From Psammoneis japonica (Eukaryota): 20,000 nt of DNA. The notes under the pieces were generated by a model. That model saw only the letters and a program-made list of their open reading frames with translations. It did not search any database and was not told the origin of the DNA. Positions 1-20,000 of this stretch are shown here, in pieces. Within the stretch, counting starts at the first letter, position 1, and each line of letters opens with the position of its first letter. The translations under genes were made by a program, and so were the position numbers. Location of the stretch: the NCBI GenBank assembly GCA_008632985.1, contig QPGO01000142.1, positions 182,374-202,373 on the forward strand, read 5' to 3'.

Positions 1-2330
1 TCACCCTGCTTGGCAAAGTGAGTGAAAAGGCCTGCAGCCTGGCAGGTCTTGCTCTTCTGGGTGGCAGCACCAACAACATGGGTGCCAGTGGCAATGATGA
101 TGGCACCTTGAGGGGGGCTGACAGGTCAAAGCCCAGCCAGCTGGCCTTGAGCTTGTCTCTGGTTCATGCCACATGACAAAAGGATCCTGCCGGCACCAGC
201 TCACCATGTTGGGGACAGGAGGGCTGTGGGAGTCCAGCAAACCTTGTGGCCATGCAGTGCATGATTTGGCAACAAAATGATGACACCAACTCCTCATTGT
301 CCAATGACTTGCAATCATCATGGCATCAAGGCAGAGGTGGTGCGGAGTCATCATGAGCATCCTCAGCATCCAGAGGAGGAGGGTCCTTGGCATCCTGAGG
401 AGGCAGAGGATGATCTTGATGGGGTGGATCCTCCCTGCCCCATGACATCAGGGTCATCCGCCACTGCACTCACATTGCAAAGCATTGGTGCAAACCAATT
501 GTCTGGGGGATTCTTTCCCAGAGAATGCTGGCTCAGAGAGTTGTGTCTTGAGCCTCAGGAGGGCCATGGAGTGGAGCAGTGCCTGAGACAGTGGCATGTG
601 TGGCAGATGCAATGATCTGACAATCAACATTTGGTGGGCCCAGACTTGAGGAAAACTGCTGGTGGAGCCAGTGCGGAGCACACAACAAAACAAGCACAGA
701 GTGCAACCCCCAGGTGTTGCTCTGACAGAACCAGAGCCAAAGGCAGATGCTCTGGCTTTTGGGTGTCCCCAAACTGAAGCACACAATGGGTTGAGTTGCA
801 TCAATTGGGCGACGATGCAACCACCAGCTAAAGCTTAACACCTCAGACTGATGGTGGAGCGCAGACAGTCTCTGCTGATGAGCAGCAATGCAGTGTTCGG
901 TCAAAAGCACATCACAAACAAAGCTGGCCAGTGCCTCAACCCACTCATCTAGAATCTGCTGAGTGCAAATGCGTTGCGTGTGACATTGGGCCCACAGAAT
1001 TCCACGTGCGAGATCCACAGCAAAAGTGTCAAGCAATGAACACACATGAGTCATCAGCAACAGAAAATGAGGCCATTTTGGGAATGTGTCTCCTCCTCCA
1101 CACTTCAAGTGCACCACTTGCAGTTTGCCTGGGTGTGTTCTTCAAACATTGGAGAATGTGTCTGGCCCATTTTTGCACTCACAATGAAGAAAATAGAAAG
1201 CCTTTGGTTTTGCAAGGCACAAAGCATGAAACAATTTTGTAGAAAATCACATGCAGAAATGCACATGCATGATGTGGGATGTGATCCAAAAAACTGTTGA
1301 TGTCACAGTTCAGCAGCATGAGGTCCCACCCAGAGAGCTGGAACGTGTCCGCAGCTCCACAAACCACAGCGTGAAAATCCATGCCATCTGCTGGTGCACT
1401 GGAGGCAACACCAGTTTCCTGACAATCAACCCAACACCAAAAAGAACCAAAAATGGTCTTGTGACACTCATGGGGGCCAATTGTTGTCAAGCTGTGGGCT
1501 CTGGCAATTTAGACCAATGTGGCAGAATTTTGGAAGGAAAATCATCTCTCACAGATTTGACGGACAAACAGACAGATGAAAGACAGTGTCAATTGGCAGA
1601 ACAGTGTGCAAGTGCTGTTTGAAGCAGAGCCATGCACTGTTGCTGCTCAAGATCTGGTGACACACCTGCACCCATTTTGTTTGATGGCAGCCGCAAGCAG
1701 AAACAAAACGAGCACGCACCTCAAATGTCCATGCCATCTGCTGGTGCACTGGAGGCAACACCAGTTTCCTGACAGTCAACCCAACACCAAAGAGAACCAA
1801 AAATGGTCTTGTGACACTCATGGGGGCCAATTGTTGTCAAGCTGTGGGCTCTGGCAATTTAGACCAATGTGGCAGAATTTTGGAAGGAAAATCTCTCACA
1901 GATTCAACGGACAAACAGACAGATGAAAGACAGTGTCAATTGGCAGAATGGTGTGCAAGTGCTGTTTGAAGCAGAGCCATGCACTGTTGCTGCTCAAGAT
2001 CTGGTGACACACCTGCACCCATTTTGTTTGATGGCAACCGCAAGCAGAAACAAAACGAGCACGCACCTCAAATGTCCAACTTTTTGAGTTGCCCGGAGCT
2101 GACCCTTGTGTGTTGAAGTTTTCTTGAGCTTCAAACCTGTCTGTTTGTGGGTTTCGATGTCACCTCAAAGATCTCCTTGACCATGCCACGATCTGTTCCA
2201 ACTTGCTGCAGCAAAGAAATTGTTCTCTCTGCTCTCTAGCTGCTCTTGTGTCCTGGTGGCATCAGGTTGTGATGCCACATCTTCATCCTCTCAGTTTGAG
2301 TCATGGGGTGACACGGGATTGAGTTGATGC
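1..2330. other. Heavily mutated DNA depleted of both TpA and CpG (TG/CA-rich); probably an old repeat or gene relic, no identifiable protein
   Basis: Hand count finds fewer than ~10 TA dinucleotides in 2.3 kb, most in TAG/CTA context, and CpG is also scarce. The many overlapping Cys/His/Trp-rich ORFs show no recognisable motif. Confidence 0.7.
1378..2078. repeat. Tandem direct duplication with ~350-bp unit (1378-1727; 1728-2074 plus partial)
   Basis: 'tccatgccatctgctggtgcactggagg...gcacctcaaatg' occurs twice. The copies differ by a 3-bp indel, three A/G changes and two TG<->CA swaps. Confidence 0.97.
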
Positions 2331-2411
2331 GTGCACGCCTCGGCCTCCTCGAGAAAGACAAGGCTTGTGAGGCTCATAAAAACACATTGTCGTTGCAACT
2401 TAAGAAGAACA

Positions 2412-3657
2412 ATGAGCACCTGCAAAATGAAGCAACGTGAGACCAACAAGCAGATCGAGCTGCTGCGATTGAAGAATCAAACAAACGAACTGGAATCAGC
2501 CATCAGAAAGGGAACATCGATGATTTTGCCACTCATCCCGCCCGGCAACGCCCAGCTCATTCGTGCCACCAAGTTGCTCAATGACGAGTTGCGAGTGGCC
2601 ACCAACATCAAATCTCGGGTTTAACAGGCAATCTGTCCAGAGCGCCATCAAGTCGGCTCAGCAGCGACTCAAGCTCTACAACAACAGGTGCCCAGCAAAT
2701 GGCCCAGTCGTCTTTTGCGGTCTTGCCGAGGTGCAAGACAGTCGAAAGGAAAGGATGACAACTGTTGATCTTGAGCCCCCTCAACCAGTCAAATTCTTTC
2801 TTTATCGCTGTGACAATCGTTTCCATGTGGATCGCCCAACTTCATCATGTGTTGAGGAAGGTGAAGAGCCATGCGGTTTCATTGTCGTGGATGGCAACGG
2901 GGCGCTCCTTGGTTTGCTGCAAGGGTCGCGAAGAAGAGTTTTGCACAAGTTTTCAGTCGATCTTCCCAGCAAGACTCATCGCGGAGGACAATCGGCTTTG
3001 CGTTTTGATCGGATCCGAGTGGAAAAGCGAAACATTTGCATGCGCAAGGTCACCAAGTTGGCCATGAATTCTTTTCTTTCTCACGGCGACCAGCTCAATG
3101 TGGCCGGTCTTGTCCTTGCTGGAAAAGCAGACTGCAAAAATGACCTTGTCCAGAGCAGCCACTTCAGGCGTCTCTGCGCTCATGTTGTGGCTTGTTTGGA
3201 TGTGTCGTTTGGAGGAGAACGTGGATTTGATCAGGCAATCGACAAAAGTGCTGAAACGATCGGATGCGTCACGCTGGTTCGCGAAAAGCGTCTGTTGGAG
3301 AACTTCTTTGAACACGTCGAGTGCGACACAGGAAAGCATTGTCACTCCGCAGAGGAAACCTTGCACGCTTTAGAAATGGGAGCCGTGAAAGATTTGATTG
3401 TATGGGACGGTCTTGATGTGACCCGCTGCGAGATGCAAAACAAAGAATCAGGGAAGCAAGTGGTTTCCTTTTTCTCCAAGTTGCAGGAGGAAACAAAGAG
3501 CGTCGATTCGTTTGCAGTTGCCAAGACAGAACCACTCCTTGATTGGATTGTCGACCATTGCAGTAATTTTGGTTGCAACTTGGAGCTAATGTCAGACAGA
3601 AGCGGAGTCGGAAAACAGTTTGCCGCAGGATTTGGCGGAATTTTCGTTAGCAGTTAG
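2412..3657 (+). pseudogene. eRF1: Eukaryotic peptide chain release factor 1 paralogue; frameshifted, 3'-truncated, TpA-hypermutated
   Basis: GTS and NIKS motifs (ATNIKSRV) lie in ORF 2331..2624. After an extra T in the T run at 2620-2622 the frame continues NRQSVQSAI..., YRCDNRFH (YxCxxxF), GFIVVDGNG and RGGQSALRF (GGQ at 2983-2991). It ends FGGIFVSS* instead of the usual FGGIGGILRY. Expected Tyr positions read Cys/His (DTGKHCH, VTRCE, DHCSNFG). No introns seen. Confidence 0.93.
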
Positions 3658-3964
3658 GGGTGTCTATGGGGTCGTAAGGGACAACGGTTGTCCCATTCTT
3701 GTACGCTGTATTTTCAGCCAAATATCATATCATGTCTTCAGTGAATTATGACTCAGCAATCCCCAATTATGACGATGCAACATTTAACAACATCAACATC
3801 CTTTCTGGCAATTATGACGCATCATCACTTAACACTGCCAAAATAGAAATGGAAAATGGACAGACGCAGTGGCGGGAAAACTGCATGCGTGCATCAACGC
3901 ATCATCAACCATCACCACACCGCGGCGACACCATGGCCACTCGGTTCCGTTCATACCGCCACGC

Positions 3965-4313
3965 TGGGATGATAAGACGGGTAAGAGCATTCATATAAGG
4001 TAATGTAAATGCCTCCAGTTTTATGGTGGTATTTTTTATTTGATGACTCCTCAAAGTTATTGTGTTATTTTCTATTTTCTACCAGTGCAGGTGGTTGGTG
4101 TTTTTTCTCTGCCGCCGACAAGATCGTTCATGAATCGACTGGTACTGGCGTGATAAGACGGGTGAGAGAATTTACAAAGGTAATTTAAATGTCTCGAGTT
4201 TGATGGTGGTATTTGTTATTTGACAACTCCTAAAACTTATTGTGCTCTTTTCTATTTTCTACCAGTGCAGATGTTTGGTGTTCTTTGTTTTGTTCTCTGC
4301 CGACGACAAGATC
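3965..4313. repeat. Diverged tandem duplication with ~180-bp unit; each unit contains a GT..AG intron-like AT-rich stretch
   Basis: 'gataagacggg...aaggtaat...tggtggtatt...tctattttctaccagtgcag...gacaagatc' occurs at ~3971-4125 and ~4152-4313. Confidence 0.9.
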
Positions 4314-4403
4314 ACGGCGGACAATCAGCCTTGAAAAGACACAGATTAGTGGTTAGTTGGCACCATCAGGACTTTGCTCCTCTTTTCAATGAATTGAATA
4401 TTG

Positions 4404-4575
4404 GTTGACTACAATACATTAGCTCTAGAAGAAACCCTCAGGTAGGAGCATGCACCATGCGACCACGTTTGCCTTTGTACACATGATGCTTCCGGCCCTC
4501 ACACCAAAACTGTTCTCTTCTTTAATGCAGATGCTACTGGCTATGGAGTGTGCATTGCTGCCACTGGATTGCTAA
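4404..4575 (-). repeat. Degenerate tandem copy of the 3' end of the adjacent minus-strand ORF (template ~4583-4787)
   Basis: Shared blocks 'tacaatacatta', 'atgcttccggccctcaca', 'ttctcttcttt.atgcag.tgct.ctggct.tggagt' and 'attgctgcc'. It translates to CEGRKHHVYKGKRGRMVH versus CEGRKHYVQNGLRGRVVH, with a stop and deletions. Confidence 0.88.
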
Positions 4576-4601
4576 CAAAAAATTGATTACAATACATTAA
4601 T

Positions 4602-5555
4602 TCACTCTAAAAGAATCCCGCGGTGGTTTTTTGTGCATGGAAAGGTATGCACGACGCGACCGCGTAAACCGTTTTGCACATAATGCTTCCGGCCCTCACA
4701 GCAAAATTCTTCTTCAGTTCTTCTTCTCTTCTTTGATGCAGGTGCTGCTGGCTCTGGAGTAGGGATTGCTGCCGCAGAATTAGCTACTTGCAGGTTGGTG
4801 GGGAAGCAAAATAGTGGACTGACAAACGAACCAACGCTTGTTTCAATCCATGGCGATGGCGGCGTCGGAACCGGGCGGAAGGGCGATGATGGGAGTTTGT
4901 GGAGAGTTGTTTCCTGCTTCAGAGTCTCTTCATACAAAATGTCTTCCACTATTGACTCAAAGTCTGGACCAAAATATTCAAAATCCGGCGGATCAGCAAC
5001 TCCAACATTGTCGGTCAAGCGTGCCGTCGTATCGGTTGGACCGACGAGCGAGTGATTCGGGTTCAGCAAAGGTGGAGTTTGTAAGCCAGCATCTGGTGTG
5101 GGAGCCAAGCAATGCAAAGGATCCACAGCGGGGATGCTTTCCCACAAATGGTCTAAAACCGAGTGGCCCAGCAGTCCACCGCCCTCTTGAGTTGCAAGAA
5201 ATGTGTTCTCCAATGGACCCCTCCTGAATAAATTGTTTTTGCATTCCTTTGGCAGCACCAGAAGGAAATTGGGTTGCACCTCTTTCAAAACCCGAACAGT
5301 CAGTTCATCTGGTGGATGGCAATTGGAAGCATTCGGATTTCTGTGGCACGTCGCATCGTGACCCTTCTTGCAGCTCGGTCCCCTCACACACCGTGGGCAC
5401 ATTTTTGCACCAAAGTCAACTCGAGTGAGCACGTTCTTTCGTATTTCTTCACTCTCATTGAACAGACAGCATGCACATCTAAACATTGCTTGTTCCTGTT
5501 GCTGGGCATGATTCGCAAACCCATTCCAGCAAGTCGGCGTGTTCTGTTGAAACAT
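4602..5555 (-). CDS. Hypothetical protein (~317 aa from ATG 5555) with two Cys/His clusters and an NLS-like KKRRR; possibly TE-associated
   Basis: Within the 402-aa open frame: CPRC-x8-GHDATC near the N-terminus and FCC-x11-RGRVVH-x3-C at the C-terminus, joined by a Pro-rich linker. The start codon is uncertain. Confidence 0.55.
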   Translation of the reverse strand: MFQQNTPTCWNGFANHAQQQEQAMFRCACCLFNESEEIRKNVLTRVDFGAKMCPRCVRGPSCKKGHDATCHRNPNASNCHPPDELTVRVLKEVQPNFLLVLPKECKNNLFRRGPLENTFLATQEGGGLLGHSVLDHLWESIPAVDPLHCLAPTPDAGLQTPPLLNPNHSLVGPTDTTARLTDNVGVADPPDFEYFGPDFESIVEDILYEETLKQETTLHKLPSSPFRPVPTPPSPWIETSVGSFVSPLFCFPTNLQVANSAAAIPTPEPAAPASKKRRRTEEEFCCEGRKHYVQNGLRGRVVHTFPCTKNHRGILLE

Positions 5556-5835
5556 GTTTAACTTTGAGGAAGACGGCGTGGGTGCTCCTTTTTGCACTCG
5601 TACCCATTTTGACAAAGAGCAGAGCCACAACAACAAGAGTAAGAGCTGTAAAGTTGTGATGAGATGCAGCAATATCGTGGTTCTTGAAAAGGAAAAGCAT
5701 CGACAATGGAAAAGCATGCGGTAACGTTCAACAATTTTCGAAAGATTAGCGCGGCAATTTCTATTTGTCACATCTACGGAAATTTTGTATGAAGGGGGGG
5801 CATGTCGCATATACCAAAATACGGCCGAATTTCAT

Positions 5836-5872
5836 GGGGGGGGCTTAAGTAAAAACAGCGCCCCCCCCCCCC
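5836..5872. repeat. G8/C12 inverted homopolymer hairpin at the junction between two sequence blocks
   Basis: ggggggggc-ttaagtaaaaacagc-gcccccccccccc, with another G7 run at ~5794-5800. Confidence 0.6.
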
Positions 5873-5874
5873 GC

Positions 5875-6645
5875 AAAATCATCAACGGTCGGTGGTGCGC
5901 AGTGCGCTGGGTGGTGAGGTGAAGAAGGACGGACCGAGGGTGCGCACAGACGGGCGAGTGGTAGCGGTGGTTCCGTTGAGCGGGTGTCGTCGAAGAAGAG
6001 CTTGACAGTTGGAGAGATGCGTTGAGAGAGCGAAGCCGAAGTTAAGGCCAAGGATTTGGGAGGCCCACAGTTGGGGTGTTGCGGTGTGTTGGGAGGTGCC
6101 AAAACGGTCGGGTGAGATTTGTTTCCAAGCGGTGTTGGCATGGGCCAAGAGGTTGGAAGGAGCGAGGAGGGAGGTTTTGCACAGGCAGAGAAGGAAGCGC
6201 GCGAATTGGAAAGGTCCGAAGGGCTTGTCCAGGGAGGTTTGGGCGGGATGGGAGGAATGGAGGAGGATGACATGGCAGAGTTGCCGAAGAAGAAGACGTG
6301 AAAGTGGTGGCCAATGCCGCCAAGGTGATCGAAGGTGAAAGGTGGAAGAAAGAGACCGGCTTGGTTGATGGCGTCGATGATGTCAGAGCGGCAGGTTGCA
6401 GATGTTGTGCGACCAAGGAGCTTTTCCCGTGTGCTGCTGAGGTGAGCCTGAGTGAGGAGGTTGTCTGGGGCAGGCAAACCAGGTGCAGGCGGCGGGGGAG
6501 CTGGAGGCACAGTCACATCGATGGCGACAAGTTGATGAGAGGAAGGGGCGGCAGGGGGTGCAGAGCCGGGGACGAGTTGGACTGCGACGTCGGCGGGACG
6601 TTTGAGTGGGTGGTCGGGGAGAAGGCCGGCAGGGTCAGCACTGAG
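5875..6645 (-). mobile_element. 3' fragment of a non-LTR retrotransposon with a restriction-like endonuclease (CRE-type); 5'-truncated and frameshifted
   Basis: PAGLLP...RPADV...AIDVT...H...REK...PFTFDHLGGIG matches the RPD-x-D-x-K-x-P-x-GxxG RLE layout. After a frameshift near 6180 it continues as TPQLWASQILGLN (ORF 5882..6148). No RT is present and TpA is depleted. Confidence 0.7.
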
Positions 6646-6986
6646 GTGGCGAGCAGATTTTGAGTCATTCCTGAACGAGAGAGCGCATGCGATGCGGAGG
6701 AGTAGAAGGGCAAGAACAAGATTCGAGAGCAAAAATCACGAGCCAAAGCGCGAAAAACAACCCGTTTTCGAAGTGTTTCGTAATTCGAACAAATTTGTTT
6801 AAAAATGTTGCTTTTTTAGGATCTCGCTCTCGCGCCTCGCGCCATCCGCCAACATCATCAACATGCAGGACGCATGCTGCACCAACACATCACCGCAACA
6901 GCCTTCTGCTTTTGTCAGGACTGCTCGATGTCAAAGTTTGAGTCTCCTTTTCTGTCATTGCCGTGCCTTGAAGTCCATTGAACACA

Positions 6987-7771
6987 ATGGAATGCCGTCC
7001 CAAACGCAAGGCTGCCGAAGCGGCATTGACGGCGATGAAACAAATGCGAGTGTGCGAGGACGCGCCCAACGAGGACGAATGTGATGCACAGAATCATCTC
7101 GAGAACGCTGCTGCCGCTTCTGCCCCGTGCTTTGCATCCGAAACGGTCACACTCCCCCATGAGCTTGGATTGCTTGTGCTTGAATTTCTTCCAAAACGCG
7201 AGCTTGTCCATGGCGCTTCTATGGTGTGCAAGTCTTGGCTCGCGGCCGCGCGGAATCCGAGTCTATGGCTTGCACTGGAAGCAGACATCTGGAGAAAAAC
7301 AAGCTTTGAACGTCGTTTCTCCATGAAGAGTTTTGTTTCCTTTCTCAATCGTCCACAATTTGTGTTGCTCCAAAAATTGGTGCCTCCGGATCTCTACAGA
7401 ACGCTGCTGCGCAACGTTTTTGATCGCATTGCCGCGGCAATCGGTGAGCATTTGGAGGAGTTTGATCTCTCGGGATGCACGTCGAAGTGCCGTTCGGTGC
7501 CAGTTCCTTATGACGAAGAATTCCTTCGAATCCCCACTCTGTTTCCAAAGCTCAAAAAGGTCTCCATCTGTTTGAGACATGTGCGAGAAGAGACCCTGGT
7601 GCAGTTCATTCAAGTCATGGGGGATCGACTCGAGAGTCTCGAAATTGTGGCGAAGGACAGTGAAGCTCATTTCTGCACGGACGCAACTCTAAAGGCGCCA
7701 GCTCAAAACTGCCCCAACTTGGAGTGTGTTCGACACAAGGACCCAGGACATGCAGACTTTACACTGGGACT
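6987..7771 (+). pseudogene. F-box/LRR-like protein gene, truncated at its 3' end by the LTR
   Basis: F-box LPHELGLLVLEFLPKRELVHGASMVCKSWLAAARNPSLW, then LRR-like units (LEEFDLSGC, FPKLKKVSI, LESLEI, CPNLECV). The frame runs into the LTR at 7772 and stops at 7794-7796. Confidence 0.85.
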
Positions 7772-8056
7772 TGGGATGCAACAATGCACTGTGTAGGATG
7801 GAGAGTTCAGGACTCTCTTGAGGTTGCACAACGCAACAGAGGATGACAAGAAGTGGGTTTGGGACAATGAGATGCGCCAAAGACACGAATTGTGAGAAGA
7901 TCTCACGAGGGATTGGAGATGACATTGTGACCTGACGGTCGTGTGTGTCACTCCGATTGCTGTCGCTAGAAGACTCAACGGACATTTCTTCCGGAAGAAG
8001 AGATCCATGACCGGGAGCGTCATCCGTGAATCAGACTCGGTTGTTGACTCGTGACT
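7772..8056 (-). repeat. 3' LTR (285 bp), TpA-hypermutated copy
   Basis: Colinear with 14758-15042, with 18 mismatches by hand alignment. Only 2 TA dinucleotides remain. Confidence 0.95.
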
Positions 8057-8065
8057 CTCCCTCTC
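8057..8065 (-). promoter_or_regulatory. Polypurine tract
   Basis: Minus-strand GAGAGGGAG directly precedes the 3' LTR. Confidence 0.85.
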
Positions 8066-8092
8066 AACCGAAAAGAGAAGGAGAACCATCAG

Positions 8093-11000
8093 TCACCAGC
8101 CCATGAGGGCTTTGCGACCAGTGCGGAATAGATCAACAGTCAATCCTTTAGCAAACTGGTCAGCAAGCTGTGCAGCTGAGCTCACAGGCTCAATTTTGAT
8201 CTCCAAAGCCTCAACTTTAGCACGAAACCAATGGTGGGGAATGCCGATGTGCTTGGTTCGTGGGGACAATTTTGGCATGCGGGCGAATTGGAGGCAGGCA
8301 GCATTGTCTTCGTACACAACGGATGCTGGGAGGTTAGTGGAGTCAATGGGAGAATCCTCAGTTCCGTCGTTGGCGTGTCGGAAAGCCTTCGAATGTGTCG
8401 AAATGTCGGTCTGTCTGTCCGGCTGTCCGAAAACGAGCGCGTTGATTTCCTTCACGATCTCGCGAAGGGGGATGAGATCACGCATCGCTTGGGAGAGGGC
8501 GACATGCTCGGCTTCCATGGTGGAGAGTGCGACGAGGGTCTGCAACTTGGACACCCAGACAATCGGACATCCAGCACAACAAATGACACATCCCGCACGT
8601 GACTCAACAGACGTGGGATCTTGTCCATCTTCAACACTGAAGAGTCCCGCGAAATCAGCATCAACATGGCAGTCGAGTCGTTGATCGGCGGTTGGAGTTA
8701 GGATGAGTCCTTTATCGGCCGCATCCTTCAGGTGACGAAGAATGCGCTTGATGGCCGCAGCGTGGGAGGCCTTGGGTGCGCAGGAGAACCGTGCGACTTG
8801 ATGGGTCGCGCAAGCAATGTCCGGGCGGCTGTTGGACGCTAGATGCATCAGCATGCCGACCACGGAACGGCAGTCGTGAGGCTCTTCGAACGGTGGCCCG
8901 TCGGTGTCGCTGCCAGCAGGAGCAGGCAAGGCAGGAGTGGGTGCGCCGTTGCACTCAGTCATCTGTGCGGTTCGGAGAACTTTCTCAATTAGGCCGGGTT
9001 GGGTCAGGAGGAATCGGCCGTCTTCGAGCTTTTGAATCTTGACACCTGGAAAGTTGCCGACTTCGCCTTCATCACGTAGATCAAAGACATGGCGTTGCTC
9101 ATCGTCAGAAATGCCCAACTTGGCAATCTCTGCTTCCAAGGCTTGGGCCGATGCGCCGGCGAACACGGTGTCATCAACATGTGCCACACATGACACACCC
9201 CTTTTGAAACAAAGACAAGGGTCAATGGCGGATTGAATCCATCCTCTTTCGAGCAATCCGTCCCTCAGCTTTTCAAAGAAGCACTTGGGAGACTGGCGTA
9301 GGCCGTGTGGGCCTTTCAATAATTTCAGCACCAGATCGGCGCCCGATTTTGGTTGGAAACCCTTGGGAGGCTCTACATGGACCTTCTCCTTGATGTCAGC
9401 TTGGCAGAAGGCTGTAGCACAGTCCACTTGACGTGCAGTCCAACCTTCCTTGAGTGCCGTGGTGAGGAGAAGGCGCGTGGACGACCATTGCACCACCGGC
9501 GCGTAGGTCTCGAAAAAATCGATCCCGTGTTTCTGCAAATCGCCGCGAACGCAACATCGTGCCTTGCACTTCAAGGGCGCACCATCCGGGAGTCGTTTGA
9601 GTTTGAAAGCCCATGTGCCGGGTAGTGCATTCATGTCTGCCGTTCTTGGCACCATTTCCCATGCACGTCGGTGGAGTGGCGCGTCAATTTCGATTTTCGT
9701 AGCCTCAACCCACTCTTCGGATTCATCGCTGCGCATGGCCTCGTGTAAAGAAGGCACATCGGGATCTTTTTGCTTTTTAGCAGTTGCANNNNNNNNNNNN
9801 NNNNNNNNNNNNNNNNNNNNNNNNNNNNNNNNNNNNNNNNNNNNNNNNNNNNNNNNNNNNNNNNNNNNNNNNNNNNNNNNNNNNNNNNNNNNNNNNNNNN
9901 NNNNNNNNNNNNNNNNNNNNNNNNNNNNNNNNNNNNNNNNNNNNNNNNNNNNNNNNNNNNNNNNNNNNNNNNNNNNNNNNNNNNNNNNNNNNNNNNNNNN
10001 NNNNNNNNNNNNNNNNNNNNNNNNNNNNNNNNNNNNNNNNNNNNNNNNNNNNNNNNNNNNNNNNNNNNNNNNNNNNNNNNNNNNNNNNNNNNNNNNNNNN
10101 NNNNNNNNNNNNNNNNNNNNNNNNNNNNNNNNNNNNNNNNNNNNNNNNNNNNNNNNNNNNNNNNNNNNNNNNNNNNNNNNNNNNNNNNNNNNNNNNNNNN
10201 NNNNNNNNNNNNNNNNNNNNNNNNNNNNNNNNNNNNNNNNNNNNNNNNNNNNNNNNNNNNNNNNNNNNNNNNNNNNNNNNNNNNNNNNNNNNNNNNNNNN
10301 NNNNNNNNNNNNNNNNNNNNNNNNNNNNNNNNNNNNNNNNNNNNNNNNNNNNNNNNNNNNNNNNNNNNNNNNNNNNNNNNNNNNNNNNNNNNNNNNNNNN
10401 NNNNNNNNNNNNNNNNNNNNNNNNNNNNNNNNNNNNNNNNNNNNNNNNNNNNNNNNNNNNNNNNNNNNNNNNNNNNNNNNNNNNNNNNNNNNNNNNNNNN
10501 NNNNNNNNNNNNNNNNNNNNNNNNNNNNNNNNNNNNNNNNNNNNNNNNNNNNNNNNNNNNNNNNNNNNNNNNNNNNNNNNNNNNNNNNNNNNNNNNNNNN
10601 NNNNNNNNNNNNNNNNNNNNNNNNNNNNNNNNNNNNNNNNNNNNNNNNNNNNNNNNNNNNNNNNNNNNNNNNNNNNNNNNNNNNNNNNNNNNNNNNNNTG
10701 CCCCCCTTCCAACGGATGGATGCGTGGAGGAGCATCGCTCTCGCCATGTTGGAGACGGAGCGAATGCCGCGTTCTGCGACGCCGTTCTGATGGTGGGCGT
10801 TGGTTCCGCAAAAACGCAGACGTTGTTCGTGCTGTCGTGTGTGTTGCACAAAAGCATTGGCCTTGAAAGCGCCAGAATCGGCAAGAAATTCTTGGATGAT
10901 GACGCCGTGGTCCATCGCGTGCTTTTCAAACGCTTGCTTCGCTCGCACCGTTTCCACAGCAGAGAAACCAAGTTGGTGTTCAATATGCAGGTAACCGGAG

Positions 11001-14000
11001 GCATGATCCACAAAAATGCAGCCTCCTTTGCATTGCTGGGACGAGGCCTTCCCGCAGGAGTCGCAGGTTCGGCCGAGGAGACGGGATTCGAAGTGATCCA
11101 CGCTGACAGCTTGGCCTGGGCGCAGATGCTCGGCTCGAAGAGCACCCTCACGCTCTGGAGCAGCCGTGTGTTTGGCAGACTTGAGGGTTCGGCGATGTCC
11201 TTTGGCACATTCGCGTGCCTCGCACCGCGGAATGTCGCAACGCGAAGCATGCTTGAATTTGGGTCGGAGAAAAGGTTCGGCCCGAAGCAGGCCTTGGATG
11301 CGTGGCATGTTCAGGTGACCAAACCTGAAGTGCCATTCTTGAAGGAGCTTCTGACCGGTGGTGAGGTTCTGGTTGTCCTCGTGCAACACAGACAGATTGA
11401 CTTGAGGAGCGGGTGCCACCCCGTTGGTCACAGACGCAACCGGCAAGTGATTTGACGCGTGCGCGACCTTGAGCGAACCGACGCCATCAACATGCACTCG
11501 AAATGAGTCCTCGTCTCCCTCATGTTTTCCTGTCACGCCATGTTCCTTGCTGTGGAGGCGTTGTGGGGATGGAAGACGTTGTCCAGCCTGAGGCACATGG
11601 CACGCCATCGTCTTGACGACGAGCTCAGAGTCGTCCTCGTCATGGAAAACCCAGGAGACGGGTCCGATGCCGGCGATGGTTAAGCCATTTGCTAGACCCC
11701 CAAGCTTCAATGGGCCATCAGGGATCGTCAGAGGTCCGACAAAGTCGTTTTCATCGTAAGCAATGGCTGAGGATGCGCCAGCATCGCACATGACGGTGTG
11801 GCGCTCATGTGCTAGGCTCAGCAAAGCTTGCGGGTCGGCGGCGAGTTGTGCTAAAGAACGTTGGCCCGTCAACACCTGCACAGAGGCATGAGTGGGACAG
11901 GCTTCGGTTCCGTCAGTAGCTGCCTGGAGAAGCTTCACAGGGTCTTGCCATGGAGTGGTGTCCACGAAACCAAACTTGGTGGACAGCTCGTCGAAACGAA
12001 AATAGTCCGGAGAGAGCTCCTCAACCGCATCAAAGTAGTGGCTCGGCTCGGTCGGGAGCGGGCCGAGGGCTTCCTCTGAATCATAGGTGTCGAAGCAGGA
12101 CTCGAGGTCTTCTAGAGCTGGAGGGATGCAGCGGCCTGGGGAAGAGCATACGTCGTTCTCCCAGAGCTGCGTGAATTTCTTGCTCAGATGATGGTCCGGA
12201 TCGCGCTCCACAAATTCGGCAAGCACTTGTCGCGCCTTGATCTTGTTGCACTCCACCAAACTGCCCGGATCTAACACTGTCTCATCGTCTGGTTCTTCAA
12301 TGATCGAGTAGACCTGAGAGCTGGCTTTGGAGAAGCGAGAAGGGACATTGGAGAATGGATGCGTGGGAAGCTGACCGTTGAAAACAGACGCCCAGACCAT
12401 GACAGCTCCAGTCAGCACCATCCAGGTAGAGGGGAAACCGTGAATGGTTGGGATGAATGCCTTGCGGCGCACACGACGAGGTAAGACAGGAATCGGCGCA
12501 CAGCAAATGTGCAGCACCGTTTCCCAGAACACAGCAAACAGCCAGAAAACTCGGAGCTTCAAGAAGTTCCAGAAAAGCTCAAGACGAGAGCTCGGCGTTG
12601 CCTCCTCGACGCTGCAATCAACATCTTGGGGTTCGGGATCGTAAAATTCGAAACCGCGATGCTGGGTGCTTGGAGGTAAGTGCTCGTAGCTGTCTTCGAA
12701 AGGTAGGATGCTTGCCCCGGAAACGAGATCGTCTGACACGTCGTCGGACAGACCTTCCACGTGAGTTGCGATCGTGTCATAAAACACGTCCGGATTTTGA
12801 ATCTCGTGCATGGCACAGGCCGGAAATAGCTCGACAGCTGACGGTGGGGAGTCAAAAGAGGAGTGAGCGTCGGAGCACTCGGAGTGATCGTCAGCGTCTT
12901 CGGGGTCAACCGTTTCAACCAAGATGGGAGCGGGTTTGGCCACGGTAGTCTCCCTCTCGGCCGATGGAGCAGGAGTGAACGAGACGGTCGCAGTCACTGG
13001 AGTCGAACTCAAAGAGTCGTCCACAGGTGCACACCACATGCCGCAACAAACCAGCTCGTTAGGGTCAGAGGGTTCGTCTGCAGGCGGAGGCGTCGTCTGC
13101 TCGGGAGGACCAAAAGGAATGCCCGAAGAGGGGTCCGACACAGCAGATAAATTTGCCGCAGCGGTGGTTTCGGTGTTGACAGACGGTTTCCCGGTGTGTT
13201 GAGCGGAGGAGTGGCCTTGATGCATGCCCTTCTTGCCCGTTTCCTTGTTCACACACTTGTCGCACCAGTGCCAGGTCGTGCCTTTCTCGTCGGTGACAGT
13301 GGCGCCTTTGTGAACGAAACGCCAGGCCGGCTTGGGTGGTTTCTTGGAAGGGTCAGTCTTCCGGACATCCGGAGGGTCATCCTTGGACTTGTCCGCCGTG
13401 CCCTTTTTGTCCTTCTTGCATTGCTCCTTGCAGGTGGGACACGTGCGTTTGGTGCACCCAACCTTGCCACAGCCGCAGCAATGCTTTTCCGAGTTGTCCT
13501 TGGCGAGGTTGGATTCCGGGAGCTTGGCTGCTAAGGCAGGCCAATCTTCATCGCTAATGAGTTCGCCATGGGTCTTGGTGATCCAGCCAACAAGGCCAAC
13601 AGGTCCAAGATCCGCATGGTCGGCATCCTTGGGGACTTCTGCCGGGTCATGCAAGCGACATTTGCGCTCCAAGCGCTTGACGGAGTCGAGCTTGGCAAAA
13701 ACTTGACGATTGAAAAACTCGGAGGATGTCTTTGACACCTTAGATAAAATGGCAGACCCAGTTTCAACTGGCAACGCACAGTCCGTCTGCATGATCTTGA
13801 GCAGGCGCAGAGCTTCGGTTGCAAGCTCGGTGCAGTCTTCGCCAGGGTGGCCATCCAGAGTTAAGTCGTTCAACTTTTCCTTGGCGGCCTTGACGTCAAC
13901 CAGAGCACTGGCGTTGCAGGCATCCAGAGCCATCATAAATAAGACAGACCCCGGAAGATCCTTGCAGTTCTTCAAGTGATTAAACTTGGTTTCAATCTTT

Positions 14001-14575
14001 TCACGGAAGGTTTCGGTGATGCGCGACTTGACGATGAGTTGTGATGAGCTGATGTCATCGATTTCATGCTGATCGTAGCCTTCGTCACCTGCAGCCGCCA
14101 CACGGGTCTCACATTCCTTCTCAAGGTCTTTGACAGTGAAGGCGTGAAGATGATCAAAAAGGTGCACGACCTTGCCGTCGACTTTCTTGAGATGGTAGAA
14201 AGTTTCTTGTCCGTGCGACTTGATTGAGTCCTGAATGGTCTTGACGAAGTGGTCTTTGTCCAGTTCAGTGCTGGAACCGTTGGACAACTCAATCTGGCCA
14301 TTGAACTTGGATGTGGTTGCCGAAGCGAGTTGATCTCTGAGAGATCGATCGACAGAGTCGACAGCTTTCGGATGGCGACGTTGCGAGGCAAAACGGCAGG
14401 TGCGGGTGTCGGTCTGCTCGCACTTGTTGTTCAGAGCCGAACCACCCAGATGCACTCCATGAGAGTGGTGGGTGCCGCCGCGAAGCGGCGTGGGGATCGT
14501 AGGAGGGTTGGTCGAGGTTTGCATCTTGGCGAAGGCCTCAGCAAACATCTTGACGGTGTCAGGATCCATGGACAT
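8093..14575 (-). pseudogene. Copia Gag-Pol polyprotein; open in the sequenced parts but catalytically inactivated by missense changes
   Basis: Gag knuckles CCGCGKVGCTKRTC and WHWCDKC..H..H; protease CDAGAS; WHFRFGH..C zinc region; integrase VSVDHF, FLADSG, QNGVAER; RT KARCCVRG, KGPHGLRQSP, AHVDD; RNase H DCHVDADFAG, STMEAEH, YEDN, QLADQFAK. Confidence 0.93.
9789..10698. other. Assembly gap (910 N) between integrase and RT
   Basis: Run of N in the sequence. Confidence 1.
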
Positions 14576-14616
14576 GGTTGTGGATGATTCGACATAGAGG
14601 ATCGATTAGCAGGTGG

Positions 14617-14672
14617 GGATTGCGACATAGATGATCGCCGTTGGATTGCGACATAGAAGATCGCCGTTGGAT
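14617..14672. repeat. 26-bp tandem repeat in the element's 5' leader
   Basis: ggattgcgacataga(t/a)gatcgccgtt twice, plus a partial copy at ~14590-14604. Confidence 0.9.
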
Positions 14673-14742
14673 GGGATGTCGTCTGCAACGAGACGAACGA
14701 GTGGCAGCAACTCCGTTGCGAGTTGATGCCGGTGCGTGGATT

Positions 14743-14754
14743 GGGGTCGTAACC
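14743..14754 (-). promoter_or_regulatory. Primer-binding site, probably of the half-tRNA(iMet) type
   Basis: GGTTACGACCCC lies 3 nt inside the 5' LTR end. It resembles the GGTTATGRGCCC anticodon-arm PBS of copia-type elements. Confidence 0.6.
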
Positions 14755-14757
14755 ACT

Positions 14758-15042
14758 TGGGATACAACAATACACTGTGTAGGATGGAGAGTTCAGGACT
14801 CTCTTGAGGTTGTACAATACAACAGAGGATGATAAGAAGTAGTTTTGGGACAATAAGATACGCTAAAGATACGAATTGTGAGAAGATCTCACGAGGGATT
14901 GGAGATGACATTATGACCTAACGGTCGTGTGTGTCACTCCGATTACTATCGCTAGAAGACTCAACGGACATTTCTTCCGGAAGAAGAGATCCATGACCGG
15001 AAGCGTCATCCGTGAATCAGACTCGGTTGTTGACTCGTGACA
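14758..15042 (-). repeat. 5' LTR (285 bp, TG...CA), unmutated copy
   Basis: On the minus strand it starts TGTCAC and ends TCCCA. It contains 16 TA dinucleotides. Confidence 0.95.
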
Positions 15043-15621
15043 CGAACTCACAGCGCTTAGAAAGTGCCAACATGCTCTCCGGGAACGAAAGAAGCCCAAT
15101 CAGACGAAAGTAACTTCACCAATCTCCCTTGAGCAGGTACGTTCGCTGTTCTTCTTTCCTTGCTTGGTGACTCCACGCATCATCTTACTAGCGGTTTTAT
15201 GGCTAATCGACTTTGCTTTTGTCTCAGGCTCCAATCGCACAACACAGCACGACAGAAATCGGCAACCTGACCTGCATCAATGAACGCCAGAGTCATCAGT
15301 TCATCAGACCTGATGACGTTTGCTTGGCGAGGCTCGGGTGCATATGACTACATTGGTAATCGTCGCTTTCGTTGGCTTGTCGAAATGAGAAAGGAGGAAT
15401 ACTCCGGAGCCAAATCTAAAAAGGAGAAGAAGGCGATTGCACTGCAAGTTCATAATCAGGTTCTTGCAAGAGGTGGCAGGTTTCTGTGTGAGAGTCCATC
15501 CAAAGGCGCCAAAGGTAGATTTGTCTATGAGGATGTTGGATTTTATAAGGCGCTACAAAAGTGTTCTCACGCTCTCCGAAAAAGAAGAGAGCTGCCTCAT
15601 GTGATGGCATTGTGGTGGTGA
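15043..15621 (+). pseudogene. Gene with tandem DUF6824-like domains; 5' part cut off by the LTR; frameshift at ~15325
   Basis: ELTALRKCQHALRERK (end of one domain) follows the LTR directly. Then come a phase-0 intron 15137-15227 (GTACGT..GCTAAT..TCAG) and RPDDVCL/frameshift/RGSGAYDYIGNRRFR..EEY..EKKAIA..GGRFL..KCSHALR. A further probable intron lies at 15618-15709, and the gene may extend to ~16038. Confidence 0.75.
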
Positions 15622-17029
15622 GTCTAAAGTCTGTTACATGTGCTGAAAGGTATATACGGTTCTCCCTCTCGCATATATTGCTCTGACATATGCTCACTCT
15701 GATCTACAGCCATCGTATATTCCTATGACGGGTTTGTTCAATTGAATTACCCCAATGGCGTAGCCCCTTCTGTTAATCCGACGCAACAATGCGTACAGTT
15801 TTCGAATTCTCCACCACCCGAGACCTCGCGTCCTGATCTGAACCTTGGTGGTCTGGTATCAGAAAGCTTACAATATCAAGTTATGGACAAAGATGAAATT
15901 TCAAGGAGAAAGGAGGCTGCGGACGCAGCAGAAGCCGCCATTGCACTTGGTTCCTTGCGAAGTAATGCGGCAGTTGGACGAACTGTTTCTGTCATGGCGG
16001 GAATGTCTTGCGCGACTGCAAGCGCGAATCGGACATGATTGAAGTTGAAGGTACAGTAGGACAGATGACGGACGAATCATCACGCCCTGCCTTCAAGGTA
16101 CCGGTACTCTCTCTAGAGAAGAGAGGAGGAAAAGGCTACTCTAGAGTAGACGGCCATGTGTATATATGAGGTCAGGATGTCGGTTTTGGTCATGCTGAAT
16201 TGCGAAATGTATTCTCTAGAGAAAAGTTTCTCAGTCTATTGCATCTCTTGTGAAACACATTCGCTGCTTTTCGGAGAGTTCACCGTCTCAACCCGATTGG
16301 CACCTAGAAGTAGAATCCACGAAGAGATACTGTAGGCGCAATCAGCATACCTGTAGGCGCTCTTGTCCTAGTACGTGGCTTTCCAGTGCGGATGAAGTGT
16401 TTCTTTTGCAAATGTTAGATATACCATGTTGTTTTCGACAATCCTGTCTGTTTGCGGAGCTCCCATGCTTACTTATTATGGCCACCAAGACGATTCAGAG
16501 GCTACAGCATTTTGCTTAAAGCGAATCATGCCATCATAGTACTTGTATATACCAACAGAGCAGATCCCCACCACACTATTCCAAAACCTACAGTATTTTG
16601 CCTTGTTTATTAATCTCGATTGTAAAAAGCTGAGCAGTGGGACCAAGCATTCCGCCCCAAAGAGAAATGGGTACACGCGTTTGATGTGGACCTCTTCCTC
16701 ACCCGGGTGCTAGCGTGGTTACTTCATCTACCAACATACCGCGATTGCTATTGGTAGGTCCAAGGTGCGCATCGTCGTCCAAGTCCCTTCGGTTGGATCA
16801 AACTTTTGGATCTTACCACACAAATCCTACATCTCAGCTTTTTCCGCCACCAAGAGTATGGAATCCGACGGTCTGTTTGAATCATTACTAATTGTCCTGC
16901 TTTTTCCGGAAACGACATCTTTGGCAGTGGATGAGGATGAAGAAAAGTGTGAGGAATCCTTTGCTTACCTTCATGCACAAGAAGAATATTTTGCAATGCA
17001 TGGCAGGGCAAAAGTGATTCAAACTGTGA

Positions 17030-18022
17030 TTAAAACAGCTTTGCATCTTTGCTTTTGTTTTTCTTCCTTCGTTTTGCCAATGCCTTGTTGATTGCGTTCT
17101 GCCCGCCTTTGCGCTTGAGCTGCTCATACTTGAGCTCTGTCGTTATTTGTTTCACTTTGTTGCGCTTCGGATAGTAACCCTGCTGGTGGTACTTTCTTGA
17201 ACGACTTTCTGAACTTGCTGTTGCAACCTGTCTGTTGTAGCGTCGCTCTCTGTTGAATCAATCGTTGCAAAGTAGCTTCATCTTGCTCCAACGTCGTTTG
17301 CTGCAATTCAGCTCGATGTGCTTGACGTCGTCGCTGTCCCCGCCTTCCGGTCAATTTTCGAAGCGCAATTCGCTGTTTAACTCTCTTTATTTCTTCTTGA
17401 TGCTTTTCTTTCATAAATTCATAGTTACGATTGGTGGCTTTTGTGTTGCCGTCAGAACTAAATCTCGGATCGCGAGCCTTGTATCTTCCGCTTCCAATCT
17501 CCACTCCAATGCCTGATGAGTTCAATAGAGGCGCACCACGCTGATAAAAATCACGTCGTAACGAGCTTGCCACTGTTGGAGCATGCTTGGACCTCTTCTT
17601 TGTTTTTGTCTCCTTTTCTGCAAGGTTCTTGTCCGACTTGTGCAGTTGTTCTCGTGCCTTTTCGATCGCCTCCTTTTTTCGTCGACGTTTGTCGTGTAAA
17701 GCCTTTGTTAACTTCATACTACCTTCTGAGCGCCGTTTCTCTAGTCGTTCTTGCAGAGTCATGTGCTGTTCAACGTCATCTTCATTGTCGTATTCTTCGT
17801 CGTGTTGACTGCTACTGCCACTGCTACTCTCGCTCGCTTCATCATCATCGCTGCTGCTACTACTGTCGAGAGAAACGCTGTCGTCTGACGGAAGGTCTTC
17901 CAAGCTGCGAATTTTAGCGACTGCCCGAGGGTGATTCCTCTGAGGAGGTTAATGACACGGAAGAATCATCACCGGAGGAGGACGAAGAGGAGGAGGCTGG
18001 CTCTGCCCGCTGCGTTGCTCAT
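17030..18022 (-). CDS. RRP36: rRNA biogenesis protein RRP36 (DUF947), interrupted by several 1-bp frameshifts
   Basis: Ser/Asp-rich N-terminus, then SKHAPTVASS, ARDPRF and YEFMKEKHQEE. After a shift at ~17180-17235 it reads GYYPKR..LKYEQLKRKGG..KALAKRRKKNKSKDAKLF* (TAA at 17030-17032). The likely ATG at 18022 needs two more frameshifts (~17920, ~18000). Confidence 0.82.
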
Positions 18023-18582
18023 GGTCGTGACACGCATTTTGCTCGGTGATCGGCGAGCGAAAAAGTTCCGCAAAACCATGATGTGCGTGCGCGTACCGGA
18101 GGTATGTAAATAGGGAGCGAAGTTATTTTTGCTATTGAAAAATCTCGACACCAAAAATACTTATCGAAAATCGGCTTTCGTCAGTCACTAAAACACACCC
18201 AGTTGCAGCGACTGACGAAAGCCTTTTTTCGATATCTTCAGTTGTAAGAGCTGTAGAGCAAGAGCAAAGTATAGAAACAAGGTGTCCCATAAGTAATTTA
18301 TATAGTATACAATCCTGTATGAGATTTCGGAACTCCGGATTAAATGTCAAATTTATGATACGACTAATGTTTGTATATAAATACAAAAATCAATTAGAAA
18401 AAGGCGAATATAACCGTTATTTTTCCTTAAATAAATACCAAATTTTCAACGACAAACATTCGCTTTCCGCTCACTCCGACCGATACAACATGCGTTTGAC
18501 CTTGTTCAGCTCGTCGAGAGCTTTCCACCGATATATGGGTCTTGGGGTCTGCGAGGCGATCCTGAAAAAAAGTTCGCTACTA

Positions 18583-18935
18583 TCCCTGCTTATTTTTCAC
18601 GAGCTCTAATTTGCACACGAACCACATGCTGGTTCCTGTGCATTTACGTACATTTTATACCAGTCGCATCGTAGTGGGGTGTTGTTCGCCGGCCCTGACG
18701 AACTCTTTCTTTGACATAAAATATTTGTCACGACGGCCGGCACAGACTGCCGGCTCGGTGGACAAGTGTTGGGTGGTACAAACACGTAGATCCTACGTCG
18801 GATTTACAGTACTCAGATTTATTCGGTACAAATCTACGCAGCATTTTGCGTAGGGTGCACACGAACCACCAGGTGGTTCGTGTGCACCCAAAAATGCACA
18901 CGGACCACCAGGTGGTTCGTGTGCATAAGCAGGGA
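18583..18935. mobile_element. Nested 353-bp MITE-like element with perfect 11-bp TIRs and TA duplication
   Basis: TA|tccctgcttat ... ataagcaggga|TA, inserted into a TA within the right TIR of the outer element. Confidence 0.85.
18853..18926. repeat. Two adjacent long palindromes, with a third degenerate copy at 18612-18642
   Basis: gggtgcacacgaaccacc-a-ggtggttcgtgtgcaccc (perfect 18-bp arms) and atgcacacggaccacc-a-ggtggttcgtgtgcat (1 mismatch). Confidence 0.95.
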
Positions 18936-19399
18936 TATTCACATACCTCCGGTACGTGGGTGACAGCACTCGTGTCCTGCCTTCGTACGTCGGCAGCAGT
19001 TTCGTTCAGTACCATTCTACGTGATTCTACGTGATTTTTGGAATTTCAATGTAGATATTAGAATCTGTATTGGTACATTATTTCAACAAGCGACTGCAGC
19101 GATTCCTCGCCATGATGACAGCCGACCATGACTTCGCTTTTCGCTTTGCCTTTTGGGGTTTGCCACCACTACACCGTCCGTGACGGGCCACAAGCTGGAT
19201 GAAGTACACTGTAGCGGCGCTGCCACTACAACAGCATCACATCCCAAACCAACCTTGGCGCCAAACATGACGCTGCATCTGTCCAAGGAACACCCGCACG
19301 TCGCAAGCAGCGAGCGTTCTTCTTCAAGTTTATTGGCATTACAAGCAAAGCAAGAACGTACCACATCTGCAACAACAACACGCAACACCACCGAGTGAA

Positions 19400-20000
19400 T
19401 GATGCAAAATCACGTCGAGTTGTTTGCCAAGTTCCGAACTCAATTGTGTCTGCCAACTCAATGGATTTGCTGACAATGTCCAGCGGCGGCCTTTGTCACG
19501 GTCCAAGCTGTGTCATCGTGATCCCACCCAAAAGTCACGATTTTGTCCGGATCTCGTTTCCAATGCTTTCCAGCACGTCTGCTGCCGTGTCCTGCGAGGC
19601 AGCTTGTGTTCCAGTGTCGCTTTTTTCGGCACCCATTGCCGCTCCACCTGTGCAAACTTAAACTTGTCAAGCTCATTGTTCTTGAACGGTTGGAAGACCT
19701 CAAGACTCTTCATTGCAAGATCTTGCAGCTGCTGATGGGCATTCTTCGCACGCTTGGTTCCGCAGCGCTGATTTTTGTGAGAAGGTTCTCGATGTTGCCA
19801 TGGACGTTGCTGATTTTTGTGTCGACGCTCAAGCGCAAGGTTGCCGAGACTGCTCAAGAGCAGGACTCTATCGCACCATGGCGGAAGCCAAGAGCATGGC
19901 CTGCCAAGAACATGCTGATTTGGGCCGTTCACAGATGCGCTGTGCGATTTCCCAATTTTGCCGAGTCGGTTGTTTTGCTCTCATGGACTTTTTGGCCGCG
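19400..20000. other. Further TpA-depleted zone with an unidentified, probably degenerate minus-strand coding relic running off the window
   Basis: About 2 TA in 600 bp by eye, CpG retained, and several Tyr-free overlapping ORFs. Confidence 0.55.

Follow-up and report, generated by a model that had tools for sequence, protein, structure and literature searches.

We have studied a 20,000-nucleotide stretch of DNA from Psammoneis japonica (contig QPGO01000142.1, positions 182,374 to 202,373), here called the window, whose minus strand carries one full-length long terminal repeat (LTR) retrotransposon of the Ty1/copia type. The LTR pair and the element are probably best explained by a hypermutation of TpA to TpG or CpA that acts at the level of DNA in sharply bounded blocks. 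Such a process would turn 5′-TpA-3′ into TpG or CpA (A:T→G:C) inside the blocks, with the affected A on either strand, and would leave the DNA adjoining the blocks untouched. To our knowledge, until 2026 every known genome-defence mutator, i.e., repeat-induced point mutation (RIP), APOBEC and 5-methylcytosine decay, worked through cytosine.

The LTRs of the element form a direct repeat at 7769-8066 and 14755-15052 that is 93% identical. Setting their limits as TG...CA gives 285 bp each, at 7772-8056 and 14758-15042, both on the minus strand. Between them a single open gag-pol frame of 2170 codons occupies 8093-14605 on the minus strand, with a TA observed/expected ratio of 0.20. Its translation runs from a zinc-knuckle gag through an integrase-like part to reverse transcriptase (RT) and RNase H, in the sequence typical of Ty1/copia, and Pfam finds RVT_2 in the frame with E = 1e-35. 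Two LTRs, the RVT_2 domain and integrase ahead of RT are thus all present, as expected of Ty1/copia. Since the sole open frame lies on the minus strand, the TA-rich right LTR is the 5′ LTR of the element and the left one its 3′ LTR. The 5′ untranslated and primer-binding region at 14606-14757 (minus strand) has normal TpA, with 4 TA in 152 nt. A run of 910 N at 9789-10698, in the integrase-RT part, was left out of the analysis; the reading frame is identical on its two sides, so that the run stands for real sequence of that length. Among named sequences, the polyprotein comes closest to those of Fragilaria crotonensis (58-59% identity) and Chaetoceros sp. (53%). The element may belong to the CoDi type of diatom Ty1/copia retrotransposons, which it resembles in a polyprotein of about 2100-2300 amino acids with integrase ahead of RT (RVT_2).

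Ungapped comparison of the left and right LTRs reveals 18 mismatches in 285 bp. Sixteen of these are transitions, and all run one way, with G or C in the left LTR and A or T in the right; the other two are transversions (7857 G/T and 8056 T/A). The right LTR (GC 44.2%) contains 16 TA, an observed/expected ratio of 0.73, while the left (GC 50.2%) contains 2, both shared, with a ratio of 0.11. At the 16 TA sites of the right LTR the left one reads TG nine times, CA four times, CG once and TA twice. The 32 positions in these dinucleotides make up 11% of the 285 and hold 15 of the 18 mismatches (Fisher p = 1.1e-13). When both strands are counted, A is changed to G in 15/32 cases after T, 0/34 after A, 0/38 after C and 1/55 after G. 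All 14 CpG of the right LTR are retained in the left, which has 15, the extra one being the TA→CG site.

The original prediction had drawn attention to this pair, giving 18 mismatches, 15 of them within TA dinucleotides covering some 11% of positions, 14 of 16 TA sites changed (TG 9, CA 4, CG 1) on both strands, and CpG unchanged. Our comparison reproduces every one of these counts. Its naming of the TA-rich repeat as the 5′ LTR is likewise correct, a point that depends entirely on the minus-strand orientation of the element. It had also offered an error-prone polymerase of the Pol-eta type (WA→WG) as a candidate agent; this is disfavored, A after A being changed in 0/34 cases against 15/32 for A after T.

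Which member of the pair has changed? CpG 5-methylcytosine deamination can be rejected as the cause, given that 14 of the 14 right-LTR CpG are retained and that CpG observed/expected is 0.95 in the element. GC-biased gene conversion is ruled out, as the changes are dinucleotide-specific. However, RIP, which converts CpA to TpA, would yield the same alignment if it had acted on the 5′ LTR, so the pair by itself is symmetric and does not reveal the direction. The assertion that C→T processes are unable to produce the pattern therefore does not follow from the pair.

Conserved residues of the encoded protein were used as the outgroup for direction. The RT-RNase H part (564 amino acids) was aligned with 44 homologs of 46-60% identity, and columns in which a residue was conserved in at least 70% of sequences were taken, of which there are 314. 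The window matches the consensus in 258 and is changed in 56. Thirteen of the conserved columns are Tyr, and here the element has Tyr once, His eight times, Cys three times and Trp once, whereas each of the 44 homologs has 8-13 Tyr and at most 2 His plus Cys. The RT box is included, the alignment consensus VYVDD being AHVDD in the window. A single reversal of CA, TG or CG to TA restores 23 of the 56 changed columns, counting cross-codon cases (T/ACN to T/GCN, the slash marking the codon boundary); reversal in the RIP direction restores 0 of 56. A strand bias was sought among the 23 explained changes and none was found, T→C accounting for 12 of them and A→G for 11 on the sense strand. Over its full length the polyprotein contains 0.8% Tyr, whereas none of 240 homologs falls below 1.6%; Cys plus His make up 7.6%, and no homolog exceeds 6.2%. 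TA was therefore the original dinucleotide in the coding DNA of the element and has been lost from it. The copy in the window has lost 12 of the 13 Tyr conserved in RT-RNase H, which sets it apart from CoDi-type elements, and it is in all likelihood inactive.

The loss of TpA extends well beyond the element and is organized in blocks. TA observed/expected was scanned over the window in 250-bp bins. Block A (1-3560) has values of 0.00-0.20 over 1-3500, with zero TA in 1-828. A short stretch at 5001-5500 is partly depleted (0.27 and 0.12). Block C (6001-14594; bins 0.00-0.44) takes in a Pro-rich open reading frame (ORF) without known family, an F-box ORF, the 3′ LTR and the element interior, and a further depleted block (0.07-0.19) starts at 19251 and continues past the window end at 20000. 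Normal bins (0.36-1.01) are found at 3501-5000, 5501-6000 and 14751-19250, and the block of normal composition at 14595-19250 carries DUF6824 and RRP36 ORFs. The borders at about 3560, 6000, 14595 and 19250 are sharp to some 100-250 bp, and three stretches of 660-828 bp are free of TA altogether (1-828, 6043-6703 and 10992-11681). Pooled depleted blocks (12,434 bp) have 7.6 TA/kb, an observed/expected ratio of 0.14, with CA at 1.45, TG at 1.35 and a GC content of 53%. The corresponding values for pooled normal blocks (6,656 bp) are 46.0 TA/kb and 0.64, with CA 1.19, TG 1.15 and GC 46%. About 38 TA/kb have thus been lost, roughly offset by a gain of about 28 CA+TG/kb. This signature, its arrangement in blocks and, for coding DNA, its polarity are seen directly in the data.

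The border near 14595 lies about 160 bp inside the element, by the 5′ LTR, and there are 5 TA between it and 14757. The left LTR (0.11) is deep in a depleted block, and the right LTR (0.73) and right flank (0.60) are in normal DNA. The simplest account of the LTR asymmetry is therefore the block border itself: a block from about 6000 to 14594 would cover the 3′ LTR and nearly the whole interior and end about 160 bp before the 5′ LTR, which would keep its TA, so that the two LTRs come to differ almost only at TA sites. From this context we infer that TA is ancestral in the LTR as well. The polarity is drawn from the Tyr→His/Cys changes, from LTRs that each match their own block, from CA↔TG doublets between copies (see below) and from a right flank free of RIP indices.

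Might selection or codon usage that avoids TpA have created the blocks? TpA is mildly under-represented in normal coding DNA, for example the RRP36 ORF (0.47-0.54). This idea is contradicted by the depletion of the non-coding LTR and of unannotated DNA, in all frames, and by the destruction of residues conserved in every homolog, including the active-site Tyr of RT, and we regard it as scarcely conceivable.

A RIP-like C→T change at CpA/TpG on the 5′ LTR and its surroundings, with TG/CA as the ancestral state, is compatible with the pair taken alone, in which case change would have struck at 13 of the 50 sites that are CA/TG in the left LTR. For the element interior it is contradicted by the Tyr codons, which show that TA was lost, and by the 0/56 protein changes in the RIP direction. 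A stop-free frame of 2170 codons also speaks against it, as do best protein matches that come from diatoms and not fungi. In addition, TpA/ApT is 0.68 in the right flank and 0.73 in the right LTR, both below the RIP threshold of 0.89; (CpA+TpG)/(ApC+GpT) is 1.25 and 0.90 in the same two segments, and 1.36 in the element, where TpA/ApT is 0.23. Ancestral TG/CA with RIP on the 5′ LTR is accordingly very improbable. The two phenomena nevertheless have much in common, since RIP in Neurospora and other fungi also makes dinucleotide-specific transitions on both strands, affects repeats and their neighborhood in blocks, comes near saturation and inactivates transposons. RIP acts through the cytosine methyltransferase-like protein RID. 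It makes TpA from CpA/TpG, raises AT and creates stops, whereas in the window TpA is lost, GC is up (53% vs 46%) and no stops are possible. Enumeration finds no sense codon that TA→TG or TA→CA turns into a stop, which explains both the long frame retained by the dead element and the many long ORFs that overlap one another in the depleted blocks. TAA and TAG triplets occur there at 4.7 and 5.2 per kb, compared with 20.9 and 18.0 in normal blocks. Genes hit in this way would stay open yet lose function, with Tyr becoming His or Cys throughout RT, the YVDD box included.

DNA that does not belong to the element is affected too. Pfam applied to 30 ORFs of the flanks named only eRF1, F-box, RRP36 and DUF6824, plus a weak Der1 match. 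The F-box ORF (6972-7796, plus strand) lies in block C and has TA observed/expected of 0.09-0.13 per 250-bp bin. In block A, an eRF1-like paralog (2328-3657, plus strand) carries the full set of three eRF1 domains, with its frame broken near 2524-2624. Of 11 conserved Tyr it retains 2, with Tyr at 0.5% against 2.1-3.9% in 44 homologs, and Cys at 4.8% against 1.1-1.8%. It is a less clean test of polarity, being much diverged (168/321 conserved columns retained): TA reversal explains only 14 of 153 changes, and three of the nine lost Tyr are Phe, two of these common to the closest paralogs. Block A also contains a 350-bp tandem duplication at 1378-2078, whose copies differ at 7 bases; 4 of these make up two CA↔TG doublets, the pattern expected if two copies of an ancestral TA were hit on different strands.

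That the F-box region, the eRF1-like ORF and the tandem repeat are all affected points to a process that works on DNA and not on RNA or cDNA, and it would have acted on the element after its insertion. The competing view is that the changes were made before integration, by A-to-I editing of element RNA (ADAR- or ADAT-like) or by deamination of cDNA. Both ADAR hyper-editing of repeat double-stranded RNA and APOBEC3 editing of cDNA resemble the present case in being deaminase-driven hypermutation of retroelements that can be fixed in genomic copies. APOBEC yields C→T or G→A, and ADAR tolerates A as well as U at −1. Many copies of the element share depleted states, which is what editing before integration would give, and overlapping transcripts could account for both the sense (11 A→G) and antisense (12 T→C) changes. 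The LTRs of one insertion, however, are copied from one template and are identical at the start. Agents that act before integration would leave both alike, whereas here one LTR is affected, together with DNA outside the element; the 16 one-way transitions between the LTRs, and the depletion of the F-box region, the eRF1-like ORF, 1-2250 and the tandem-repeat doublets, go unexplained. The strict T at −1 is also unlike ADAR. We therefore hold editing before integration to be improbable.

The sites that survive in the depleted blocks define the target further. Relative to normal blocks, the surviving TA/kb is 0.36, 0.18 and 0.04 for sites with TAY on zero, one and two strands, respectively, where the zero-strand class is CTAA, CTAG and TTAA and the two-strand class ATAC, ATAT and GTAC. 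The zero-strand class is enriched among the survivors (36/95 vs 53/306, p = 6e-5). The target is A after T, with a pyrimidine preferred next (TAY), on either strand.

The tRNA wobble adenine that is deaminated by TadA/ADAT2 sits in a U33-A34 context, and the TAY target with its strict T at −1 resembles this. An adenine deaminase of the ADAT2/TadA type acting on DNA is on these grounds the most likely candidate for the agent. It would make hypoxanthine in DNA, to be read as G. ADAR fits less well as the agent: its preference at −1 is U about equal to A, then C, then G, and no A after A (0/34) is changed in the LTR pair. The same count disfavors polymerase errors of the WA→WG kind.

A TpA-directed process has been measured directly in Bigelowiella natans. 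Its mutation-accumulation lines yielded 302 nuclear single-nucleotide mutations, of which 231 lay within two regions of integrated viral DNA. All but one of the 231 (230) were A→G or T→C, every one of the 230 at TpA, and the regional rate was about 1000 times that found elsewhere in the genome (Mettrop et al., bioRxiv 10.64898/2026.01.13.699255). The same authors report 324 TpA-poor coding sequences enriched for reverse transcriptase and DDE endonuclease domains, and propose an ADAT2-type adenine deaminase as the agent. Their nucleocytoplasmic large DNA virus (NCLDV) region has a Rho TpA of 0.45 and 3.3% TA, far from saturated (bioRxiv 10.64898/2026.01.13.699255). The likeness is close: almost only A:T→G:C changes, at TpA alone, giving TpG or CpA according to strand, confined to regions, with TpA lost and CpA+TpG gained. 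The differences are that the host there is a chlorarachniophyte (Rhizaria) and the relatives here are diatoms, that mutation was measured de novo there and has left a fossil trace alone here, and that the window is near saturation, at 0.14 over 12.4 kb against 0.45.

We conclude that the window probably records the same kind of process as the TpA hypermutation of B. natans, which was discovered there independently some months earlier. The statement in the original prediction that such a system had not been described is thus out of date, de novo TpA→TpG/CpA being reported in the preprint (bioRxiv 10.64898/2026.01.13.699255). Its core, a near-saturating A:T→G:C change at TpA on either strand and confined to domains, is borne out by the Tyr columns, the blocks, the doublets and the dinucleotide indices. 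What the window adds is a probable second lineage, a target that is an LTR retrotransposon, a state close to saturation, borders on the 100-bp scale, the TAY preference and a read-out of polarity from Tyr→His/Cys. The text of the preprint makes no mention of LTR, retrotransposon, diatom or stramenopile, and its available parts do not report a TAY preference or borders on the 100-bp scale (bioRxiv 10.64898/2026.01.13.699255). Literature searches on TpA hypermutation, with subscription journals outside their scope, found only this preprint and nothing for diatoms.

The assembly was compared with reads of one sample, in three runs (X1-X3), over 7000-16500. No RNA data set is listed among those that contain the stretch. 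Logan contigs of run X1 cover 0.69 of the 31-mers of 10699-20000. They reach lengths of up to 315 kb with even single-copy depth, which we read as the mark of an accurate-read library, and this speaks against a base-calling artefact. One X1 contig of 380 nt has 0 differences from the TpA-poor left flank at 7014-7393. By k-mer depth the single-copy flanks stand at about 31-63, and the sums for the element at about 1000-4600, mostly 2000-3000. Read from this depth, the element family amounts to about 40-60 copy equivalents at an identity of at least 90%. Both LTR types have multi-copy depth, bins over 7634-8267 summing to about 1900-2200 and the bin 14608-14924 to about 4560.

There are 132 variable sites with respect to X1, and the 40 of them that are listed resolve into 31 events: 8 CA↔TG doublets, 13 singles of TA versus TG/CA, and 10 others. 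Six of the 10 others are singles of CG versus CA/TG, and a mis-paired group at 11215-11217 hides a ninth doublet (TG→CA). No variable site in either LTR is among the 40 listed of 132, so that the LTR bases are not separately confirmed by X1. The support in reads on which the original prediction had made its case depend is thus found for the depleted left flank, matched exactly over 7014-7393, and does not extend to the LTR bases.

These data bear on the idea that a modified base at TpA (e.g., 5-hydroxymethyluracil or N6-methyladenine) was miscalled in the long-read assembly. X1 contigs have one extra base at each of 15318, 15327, 15579, 15732 and 16293 in the right flank; we read these as single-base deletions in the assembly, an error of the long-read type, and reading frames in the window need care for this reason. 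A miscall divided half-and-half between the strands could also give the mix of TG, CA, CG and TA. Such an artefact has a very slim chance of being correct, for the X1 contigs reproduce the depleted sequence (0/380 differences over 7014-7393) and the high-depth contigs of the element are TA-poor too. For RIP, CpG decay, editing of RNA before integration, a base-calling artefact and selection alike, one test or more gives a contrary result.

A more serious alternative accepts the hypermutation and questions the pair. The two LTRs may not be sisters: the 5′ LTR and 5′ untranslated region, from about 14595, would then derive from another, unmutated copy, brought in by ectopic recombination or gene conversion or through a join made in assembly. 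The LTR ends lack a target-site duplication (left GGACT, 7767-7771; right CGAAC, 15043-15047), and other choices of boundary fail too. The F-box frame 6972-7796 enters the left LTR and is not resumed past the right one, the flanks being unrelated. With neither a target-site duplication nor related flanks, the two LTRs may stem from different insertions. Some 40-60 copy equivalents, with both LTR types multi-copy, would invite recombination and mis-joins; the switch in composition falls inside the element (about 14595) and not at its end; and the single-base indels against X1 contigs point to an imperfect assembly. On the other side, the edge of a chromatin-type domain is equally expected inside an element, and the three other sharp borders are not at LTRs. 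Neither reads nor contigs gave a sign of a mis-join, although no search aimed at one was made. We judge that non-sister LTRs are unlikely on balance, with a chance that is far from negligible. If they are the answer the signature stands, but the pair does not date an event after insertion.

The missing target-site duplication and the unrelated flanks weigh against block-wise hypermutation of a single inserted element, and so do several further observations. The LTR has no outgroup: an exact 42-base LTR core gave 0 matches in metagenome contigs, and a scan of these contigs guided by protein sequence brought up only 2 loci, of 25-27% identity and unusable as outgroups, so that the polarity of the LTR is inferred from its block context. 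Run X1 is probably the sample behind the assembly. Contigs of 214-289 nt at about 700-900x (single copy about 55x) are only 3-11 letters off the window, and one such contig, at 11065-11287, has only 2 TA in its listed letters where the window has 0. Many copies must then share the depleted state, and part of the interior TA loss predates the insertion. Copies that share it differ at some sites by alternative TG/CA outcomes. The family must have multiplied while being mutated, which is odd for a broken RT; perhaps copies were mobilized in trans. The depleted blocks include host-type ORFs (eRF1-like and F-box) and unannotated DNA, and the targets may thus not be restricted to foreign DNA. Finally, when the cluster thresholds of B. 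natans are applied to 1-kb windows of our sequence, 13 of 19 pass the TpA limit and 2 of 19 both limits, where the limits are 5% quantiles of another genome and Rho follows our own reading of the formula.

Hypermutation of TpA in blocks, if correct, would be a second and saturated case in a different major lineage, so that an adenine-side TpA process would not be the curiosity of one species. The process may serve in genome defence. More tentatively, and as a possibility that we would not yet call probable, diatoms and chlorarachniophytes may share an adenine-directed counterpart of RIP (A→G at T-A-Y), perhaps old within SAR (stramenopiles, alveolates and Rhizaria). It would work in chromatin-type blocks with borders of about 100 bp, to saturation, and be active while a retrotransposon family multiplies. 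It would leave stop-free, Tyr-less and Cys/His-rich pseudo-ORFs that can be called as genes, and its enzyme might be a tRNA wobble-adenine deaminase of the ADAT2/TadA kind recruited to DNA.

There are practical consequences. Hypermutated regions keep long open frames, so that gene counts would be inflated by dead genes; they would also bias GC and dinucleotide statistics and make dating by LTR divergence meaningless. Diatoms have transformable species and mapped chromatin marks, and would offer a system for identifying both the enzyme and the signal that targets it. A natural DNA adenine deaminase with a TA(Y) preference, if this is what acts here, would be of interest for base editing.

Two ORFs of the normal block served as internal controls, DUF6824 (15271-15621, plus strand, E = 6e-16) and RRP36 (17124-17948, minus strand, E = 1e-10), and both have kept their Tyr codons. 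A Protein Atlas search with the RRP36 ORF returned its family and no informative taxon. The normal DNA at 3997-4781 contains diverged direct repeats, with units of 180-211 bp that are 81-87% identical and a mixed spectrum with many transversions. These repeats are not TpA-depleted, and local repetition alone therefore does not draw the process.

The eRF1-like ORF is closest (50-53%) to eRF1 paralogs of about 404 amino acids whose known occurrences are confined to metagenomes, Logan assemblies and a single MMETSP transcriptome, and has 47-48% identity to canonical diatom eRF1. The GGQ motif is present and the NIKS region is unrecognizable. Judged from the named matches of this ORF and of the polyprotein, at 47-60% identity, the window most likely comes from a diatom rather than from Bigelowiella. 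The named matches among the best 120 of the eRF1-like ORF are all diatoms, including Seminavis, Conticribra, Odontella, Corethron, Nitzschia, Rhizosolenia, Cyclotella, Mayamaea and Eucampia.

At the start of the window (1-2250) CpG is depleted as well, with observed/expected of 0.05-0.43, and CA+TG Rho is about 1.9; Pfam finds no family in the ORFs of this segment. Deamination of 5-methylcytosine and TpA hypermutation may converge on TG/CA here. At 7348-7608, a contig with a depth of 29.9 shows 26 differences from the window in 261 letters, and the adjacent contig over 7014-7393, of depth 31.2, is identical to it; these may be two haplotypes, 10% apart inside a depleted block. A contig of depth 67 joins the interior near 14408 to 7863 (LTR position 92) and matches the TA-poor LTR type. 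We read it as another copy of the element, with about 440 bp deleted and a depleted 5′ LTR.

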